A stretch of DNA of 64,000 nt from Escherichia coli. GTDB taxonomy: Bacteria; Pseudomonadota; Gammaproteobacteria; Enterobacterales; Enterobacteriaceae. Of the stretch, positions 59,311-59,348 are shown piece after piece. The translations under genes were made by a program, and so were the position numbers. The DNA lies in NCBI RefSeq assembly GCF_001677475.2, contig NZ_CP015229.1; one strand, given 5' to 3'. The notes under the pieces are model-generated. The model had not been told where the DNA came from, made no database searches, and saw only the letters and a list, made by a program, of their open reading frames with translations. Numbering within the stretch: position 1 is the stretch's first letter; the number at the start of each line of letters is the position of its first letter.

Positions 59311-59348
59311 AATGAATTAAAATTCAATTTATATGGATGATTATTCAT
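59311..59348. promoter_or_regulatory. Tandem ARG boxes (ArgR operator) in the argI promoter
   Basis: AATGAATTAAAATTCAAT and ATATGGATGATTATTCAT, two 18-bp boxes 2-3 bp apart, matching TNTGAATWWWWATTCANW. Confidence 0.75.

Follow-up and report, generated by a model that had tools for sequence, protein, structure and literature searches.

The 39-bp segment 59311..59349 of the DNA analysed here (a stretch of 64,000 nucleotides, referred to below as the window) is, with a probability that we put at about 95%, the ArgR operator of the Escherichia coli argI promoter, at which ArgR represses transcription with arginine. None of our observations contradicts this reading. The argI operator is a founding example of repressor–operator control in amino-acid biosynthesis, and the K-12 site has been studied since the early 1980s. 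The operator of the window is already known: its sequence is that of the K-12 argI operator (Piette et al. 1982 EMBO J 1:853; Charlier et al. 1992 J Mol Biol 226:367, as these works are cited in PMC7004355 and PMC6640053).

Two ARG boxes upstream of argI

The window belongs to the E. coli chromosome, and its gene order, yjgL-argI-rraB-yjgM-yjgN-valS, is the same as in K-12. The ArgI protein is identical to that of K-12 at 332 of 334 residues, and the 161-bp region between argI and rraB, taken together with its aligned flanks, is identical to that of K-12 MG1655 over 191 of 191 bp. The control region is the K-12 one base for base, and the preliminary description of this site was right to assign it to argI. 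The argI–rraB region is found in 5,425 of 5,426 complete E. coli genomes; conservation within the species is uninformative here, because nearly all of these genomes are at least 95% identical. The operator precedes a gene of arginine metabolism, that of ornithine carbamoyltransferase, while argR lies outside the 64-kb window (its K-12 counterpart is about 1.1 Mb distant). At the other end of the gene cluster, the apparent truncation of valS (a 683-aa ORF) arises only from the way in which ORFs are listed at the window edge; the frame stays open to position 63998.

Table 1. Elements of the argI control region and of the gene it serves, in window coordinates.
Feature	Position	Strand	Sequence	Remarks
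Promoter-proximal ARG box	59311..59328		+ strand AATGAATTAAAATTCAAT; argI sense ATTGAATTTTAATTCATT	0 mismatches to consensus
Spacer	59329..59331		TTA on + strand; TAA in argI sense	3 bp; 21 bp centre to centre
Promoter-distal ARG box	59332..59349		+ strand TATGGATGATTATTCATT; argI sense AATGAATAATCATCCATA	2 mismatches to consensus
-35-like hexamer (inferred)	59349..59354	minus	TTGCAA	4/6 match to TTGACA; 1-bp overlap with the distal box
-10-like hexamer (inferred)	59326..59331	minus	TAAATT	4/6 match, with A2 and T6; 17 bp from TTGCAA
Shine-Dalgarno sequence of argI	59291..59296	minus	AGGAGG	Read from the sequence; 5 nt before the ATG
argI	58281..59285	minus		ORF, 334 aa, ornithine carbamoyltransferase; gene regulated by the operator; K-12 annotation and synteny

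The operator consists of two 18-bp boxes and a spacer of 3 bp (18 + 3 + 18 = 39 bp), and it occupies positions -26 to -64, counted from the A of the argI start codon (ATG, 59285..59283 on the minus strand). The consensus of the ARG box, WNTGAATWWWWATTCANW, reportedly comes from the work of Charlier and colleagues in 1992; in the 64-kb window, AATGAATTAAAATTCAAT is the sole sequence that matches it with zero mismatches. Self-complementary pairs number 7 of 9 in the proximal box and 6 of 9 in the distal one, so that it was fair to call the first box a near-perfect palindrome. This "first" box, first in the coordinates of the + strand, is the promoter-proximal one when seen from argI, which is on the minus strand.

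The preliminary description had placed two adjacent 18-bp ARG boxes at 59311-59348, that is, 26-63 bp upstream of the argI start codon. Both boxes are found, but they are not adjacent, since the spacer TTA separates them; the start of the span is correct, but its true end is 59349, one base further, and the distance to the gene is right to within one base at its far end, -64. The same description regarded the arrangement as canonical for ArgR. This agrees with the literature, in which the canonical ArgR operator is made of two 18-bp boxes 3 bp apart and forms a 39-bp site (PMC6640053, PMC4381063, PMC6245113); some ArgR operators have a box spacing of 2 bp, and the site is on one face of the helix (PMC6640053, PMC4381063).

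Elsewhere in the genome, the host strain is about 97–98% identical to K-12, from which it differs by several insertions and deletions. Positions 1..6925 of the window have no K-12 counterpart in this region; they carry a minus-strand cluster that codes for an FAD-binding oxidoreductase, a CoA-transferase, an enoyl-CoA hydratase, a xylose-isomerase-like TIM-barrel protein and a short-chain dehydrogenase, and, in the place of the K-12 pseudogene ytfA, a TetR-family regulator that is present in full length (6206..6925). At 27210..27352, the K-12 chpS-chpB toxin–antitoxin pair (about 650 bp) is absent and about 143 bp of non-aligning DNA are found instead. The gene of the galactofuranose-binding protein, ytfQ, is split into 28267..28677 and 31070..31639 by an IS21-family element at 28674..31084, whose ORFs code for a 499-aa IstA-like protein and for a 251-aa IstB (Pfam IstB_IS21, E = 9e-62). 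Similar copies of this element are annotated elsewhere as ISEc10, and no genome among the 5,426 complete ones of E. coli spans the junction between ytfQ and the IS21 element.

Next to argI, the gene yjgL (56308..58224) contains an 18-bp tandem repeat at 56863..57202 (18.9 copies, 89% matches) that encodes hexapeptide repeats of the LNNSQ(K/E/G) type. The YjgL protein has 638 aa here versus 604 aa in K-12 and no match in Pfam, and the closest genome carries yjgL as a pseudogene. YjgL is apparently a repeat protein of variable length. On the other side of the operator, about 99 bp that lie between rraB and yjgM in K-12 are missing from the window (59868..59896) and from the closest genomes; this K-12 insert may be a REP-type element.

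Recovery and conservation of the site

The matrix used to score the window was trained on nine K-12 control regions (argE/argCBH, carAB, argA, argD, argG, argR, artJ, artP and hisJ); argI and its paralog argF were excluded from the training. A motif search by EM with a width of 39, run without any supplied consensus, converged in these nine promoters on a two-box motif, TGAAT...AT.CA, with a repeat spacing of 21 bp. When both strands of the 64-kb window are scanned with the resulting 39-bp matrix, the top match is exactly 59311..59349, with 35.1 bits, a value inside the range of the training operators (28–46.5 bits, which is inflated because these are self-scores). The preliminary description had proposed that the site be judged by a scan with an ArgR matrix, a poor score counting against it; with this independently derived matrix the site ranks first in the window, and its score compares with a maximum of 10.6 ± 2.9 bits in random 64-kb sequences (200 first-order Markov sequences, the highest value being 19.2). 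A symmetric 18-bp matrix gives 20.4 bits to the proximal box and 16.1 bits to the distal one, which rank 1 and 2 in the window; the corresponding random maximum is 14.3 ± 1.3 bits, with a highest value of 18.1.

Another strong ARG site with two boxes, TTTGAATTATAAGTCAAA ATA TATGCATTTTTATTTGCT, is found in the window at 53497..53535, in the pyrL-yjgH intergenic region, about 90–130 bp upstream of the start of pyrL. It scores 28.5 bits, against a random highest of 19.2, and K-12 differs from it at 4 of 39 positions. The ArgR and PurR sites of the pyrL promoter are known and have been matched to ChIP-chip data (PMC4299497). A matrix built from other promoters of the regulon recovers two ArgR sites, that of argI and the ChIP-supported one in front of pyrL. 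The argI operator is useful as a positive control, considering that a reading of the letters alone had placed the 39-bp site within one base.

Regarding conservation between species, a protein-motif pattern scan of one genome per species gave 120 OTCase loci; 65 of them are at least 70% identical to ArgI, and 63 of these have upstream DNA and could be scored. The two-box site is present in 62 of the 63 scorable Enterobacterales argI loci, with scores between 21.5 and 37.0 bits, and it is the top match in its locus in every case. The genera that have it include Citrobacter, Enterobacter, Klebsiella, Kluyvera, Yersinia and Serratia, as well as Pantoea, Erwinia, Pectobacterium, Photorhabdus, Hafnia and Edwardsiella. 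The operator ends 15–34 bp before the ATG in 61 of the 63 loci. The gap between site and ATG amounts to 146 bp in one locus (L120), possibly as a result of a misplaced start codon; in another (L125), the only such case among the 63, the two-box site was not found; a third (L122) has a second strong site, of 34.2 bits, elsewhere in the locus. The OTCase loci of the outgroup (Bacteroidetes, Firmicutes) reach 13.4 bits at most.

In an alignment of 62 sequences, TTGCA (59350..59354) agrees with the window at a mean identity of 0.88; the value is 0.78 in the distal box, 0.97 in the spacer and 0.89 in the proximal box, compared to 0.55 for the other non-coding positions and 0.63 for the first 30 coding bases. 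In this alignment the operator and the -35-like TTGCAA form the best-conserved segment upstream of the gene.

The argI promoter and alternative readings

The hexamers TTGCAA and TAAATT are the putative -35 and -10 elements of argI. TAAATT spans the spacer of the operator and the start of the proximal box, in alignment columns that are at least 0.9 conserved, and TTGCAA is conserved in argF. A consensus promoter scan called no sigma-70 promoter for argI at a threshold of 9/12, because the two hexamers total 8/12, which is below this threshold. We infer their assignment from the reading of the sequence, from their conservation and from the work of Piette and colleagues in 1982, which is said to support it; the start of argI transcription would in that case lie within the proximal box, at around 59319.

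As to how the operator works, the binding, the stoichiometry and the exclusion of the polymerase are taken from the literature. When L-arginine is plentiful, one arginine-bound hexamer of ArgR (a protein that we assume to be present in this genome) would bind cooperatively to both 18-bp ARG boxes. A single ArgR hexamer indeed binds two boxes cooperatively (PMC6245113), and it contacts one face of the helix (PMC6245113, PMC6640053). Since the boxes would cover both promoter hexamers, -35 and -10, as well as the likely start site, ArgR in its bound state would block RNA polymerase and shut off the synthesis of ornithine carbamoyltransferase. ArgR bends the DNA by about 70–90 degrees, and repression consists in the steric exclusion of RNA polymerase (PMC4381063); the boxes of biosynthetic operators overlap the -35 element, the -10 element or both, and ArgR is ineffective as a roadblock (PMC6640053). 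When arginine drops, ArgR would be released and the strong argI promoter would fire. Direct functional support comes from K-12, whose sequence is identical here, in the form of two published results. In one of them, no other arg promoter has an ArgR dissociation constant as low as that of argI (0.60) or a Vmax as high (PMC3658269).

The other concerns a point mutation in the ARG box, at position 4468182 of BW25113, which is accompanied by a more than 7-fold higher level of argI mRNA and by a higher promoter activity, and which was described as "disrupting the ARG box" (PMC11417348). We mapped this position to 59339 in the window, inside the distal box. In the argI sense, the mutation is a change of C to T at box position 11, which moves the box toward the consensus and raises its matrix score from 15.9 to 17.5 bits; T is the base that argF naturally has at this position, as do 16 of the 62 orthologous operators. 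Because the matrix score rises, the scoring of the sequence does not support the reading of the mutation as an operator disruption, which looks doubtful to us, the matrix score being only a proxy for the affinity of ArgR. An effect on promoter strength is at least as likely as operator disruption to be the cause of the derepression. With a matrix score that goes slightly up, the mutation experiment is no clean demonstration that ArgR binding is lost.

The same study bears on the possibility that the ArgR site also controls the divergent gene rraB, which encodes an inhibitor of RNase E, and that the operator is therefore bidirectional. We consider this unlikely; it would in any case supplement the function at argI, without replacing it. 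Of 65 enterobacterial loci, 61 have rraB in divergent orientation to argI, and the median length of the intergenic region is 163 bp. The -10 box of rraB has been placed over the ARG box, and the level of rraB mRNA is higher in the mutant (PMC11417348), in which GATGAT on the + strand (59336..59341), facing rraB, is converted to GATAAT. Moreover, ChIP-exo shows that about 93 bp are protected in vivo around ArgR sites (PMC4381063). On the contrary, there is a conserved and better-placed candidate for the rraB promoter, TGTGTGACAAT (extended -10), at about 59408..59418, outside the operator, and our search of the literature gave no report of rraB as an ArgR-regulated gene.

Around this candidate, the region 59380..59418 consists of two blocks, GGTGGAGGCAA and GTGTGTGACAAT in the rraB sense, that are conserved across Enterobacterales and in the upstream region of argF. 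They are probably the rraB promoter, with its extended -10 and an upstream element. These blocks are kept beside argF although no rraB follows there. The gene ykgS, which is beside argF, was considered as a remnant of rraB and rejected: there is no protein similarity, and the DNA homology stops before the start of rraB.

A somewhat slimmer chance is given to a broader proposal, according to which the argI operator sets the level of rraB, or rare transcripts initiated upstream allow the translation of an ORF that resembles argL, or both, so that translational control is added. If this were true, the control of rraB would couple the arginine status to mRNA decay, and argI would have a translational layer resembling that reported for argL-argF.

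That the boxes are conserved because of such a small upstream ORF, starting from an ATG in the distal box and corresponding to argL, is very improbable. The idea has a precedent: in the K-12 annotation, argL (31 aa) starts at the equivalent ATG upstream of argF and overlaps argF; argL is translated, and a stop codon in argL raises the expression of argF (bioRxiv 10.1101/511675). In the window, the ATG at 59347 (minus strand, 59301..59347) opens a 15-codon ORF, MNNHPYKLNFNSLRR followed by a stop codon, which ends 15 nt before argI; the argI version is unannotated in K-12. However, in 31 of 63 operators (the 62 loci and the window) the ATG is absent and yet the box is kept, and where the ATG is present, it may be in frame 0, 1 or 2 with respect to the OTCase gene, and the ORF varies in length from 3 codons to read-through. 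The missing ATG and the variable frame largely rule out a coding constraint as the cause of the conservation of the boxes. In addition, the ATG is upstream of the inferred -10 hexamer and would therefore be absent from the main argI transcript.

Last, the idea that the two palindromes are a product of chance in AT-rich intergenic DNA (the region has 39% GC, and the window contains 16 matches with at most 3 mismatches to the consensus versus 8.3 expected, a modest enrichment), or else a structured RNA or a terminator, can be dismissed, considering that the 35.1 bits of the site exceed anything obtained with the 39-bp matrix in random 64-kb sequences of the region's own AT-rich composition (maximum 16.9 ± 3.0 bits, highest 28.1), that the position of the operator is conserved across genera, that no terminator-like site was detected within the operator, and that a structured RNA is ruled out there by the absence of any Rfam family match and by a fold that is no better than that of shuffled sequence (z = +0.65).

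Comparison with other ArgR operators

The reading of 59311..59349 as the ArgR operator of argI can be set against the paralogous gene argF, which K-12 carries in the cryptic prophage CP4-6. The argF operator has TTGCAA and the same two-box layout as argI, and the two operators are identical at 34 of 39 positions; of the five substitutions, the distal box holds three and the proximal box two. The flank immediately upstream of the argF operator has diverged from that of argI at about half of its positions. Downstream, owing to a 2-bp indel, the argL ORF continues into argF, whereas the corresponding upstream ORF of argI stops after 15 codons.

Regarding the origin of argF, the K-12 gene and the 140 nt in front of it share 92.7% DNA identity (96.7% in protein) with an argI locus of Enterobacter asburiae, while K-12 argF with its upstream region is 77.9% identical in nucleotides to E. 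coli argI. From these comparisons, argF looks like a horizontally acquired argI of the Enterobacter type that brought its own operator, which fits with its location in CP4-6 beside IS1.

The other ArgR operators of E. coli (argECBH, carAB P2, argA, argD, argG, artJ, artP, hisJ) have the same 18 + 3 + 18 design as that of argI. The proximal box of argI, with its 20.4 bits, scores higher than all 18 training boxes, the maximum of which is 20.1 bits; this top score fits with the fact that the ArgR constant reported for argI is the tightest (PMC3658269). Compared to the K-12 argI operator itself, the sequence, the gene, the orientation and the neighbours are identical, and there is no difference in the operator.
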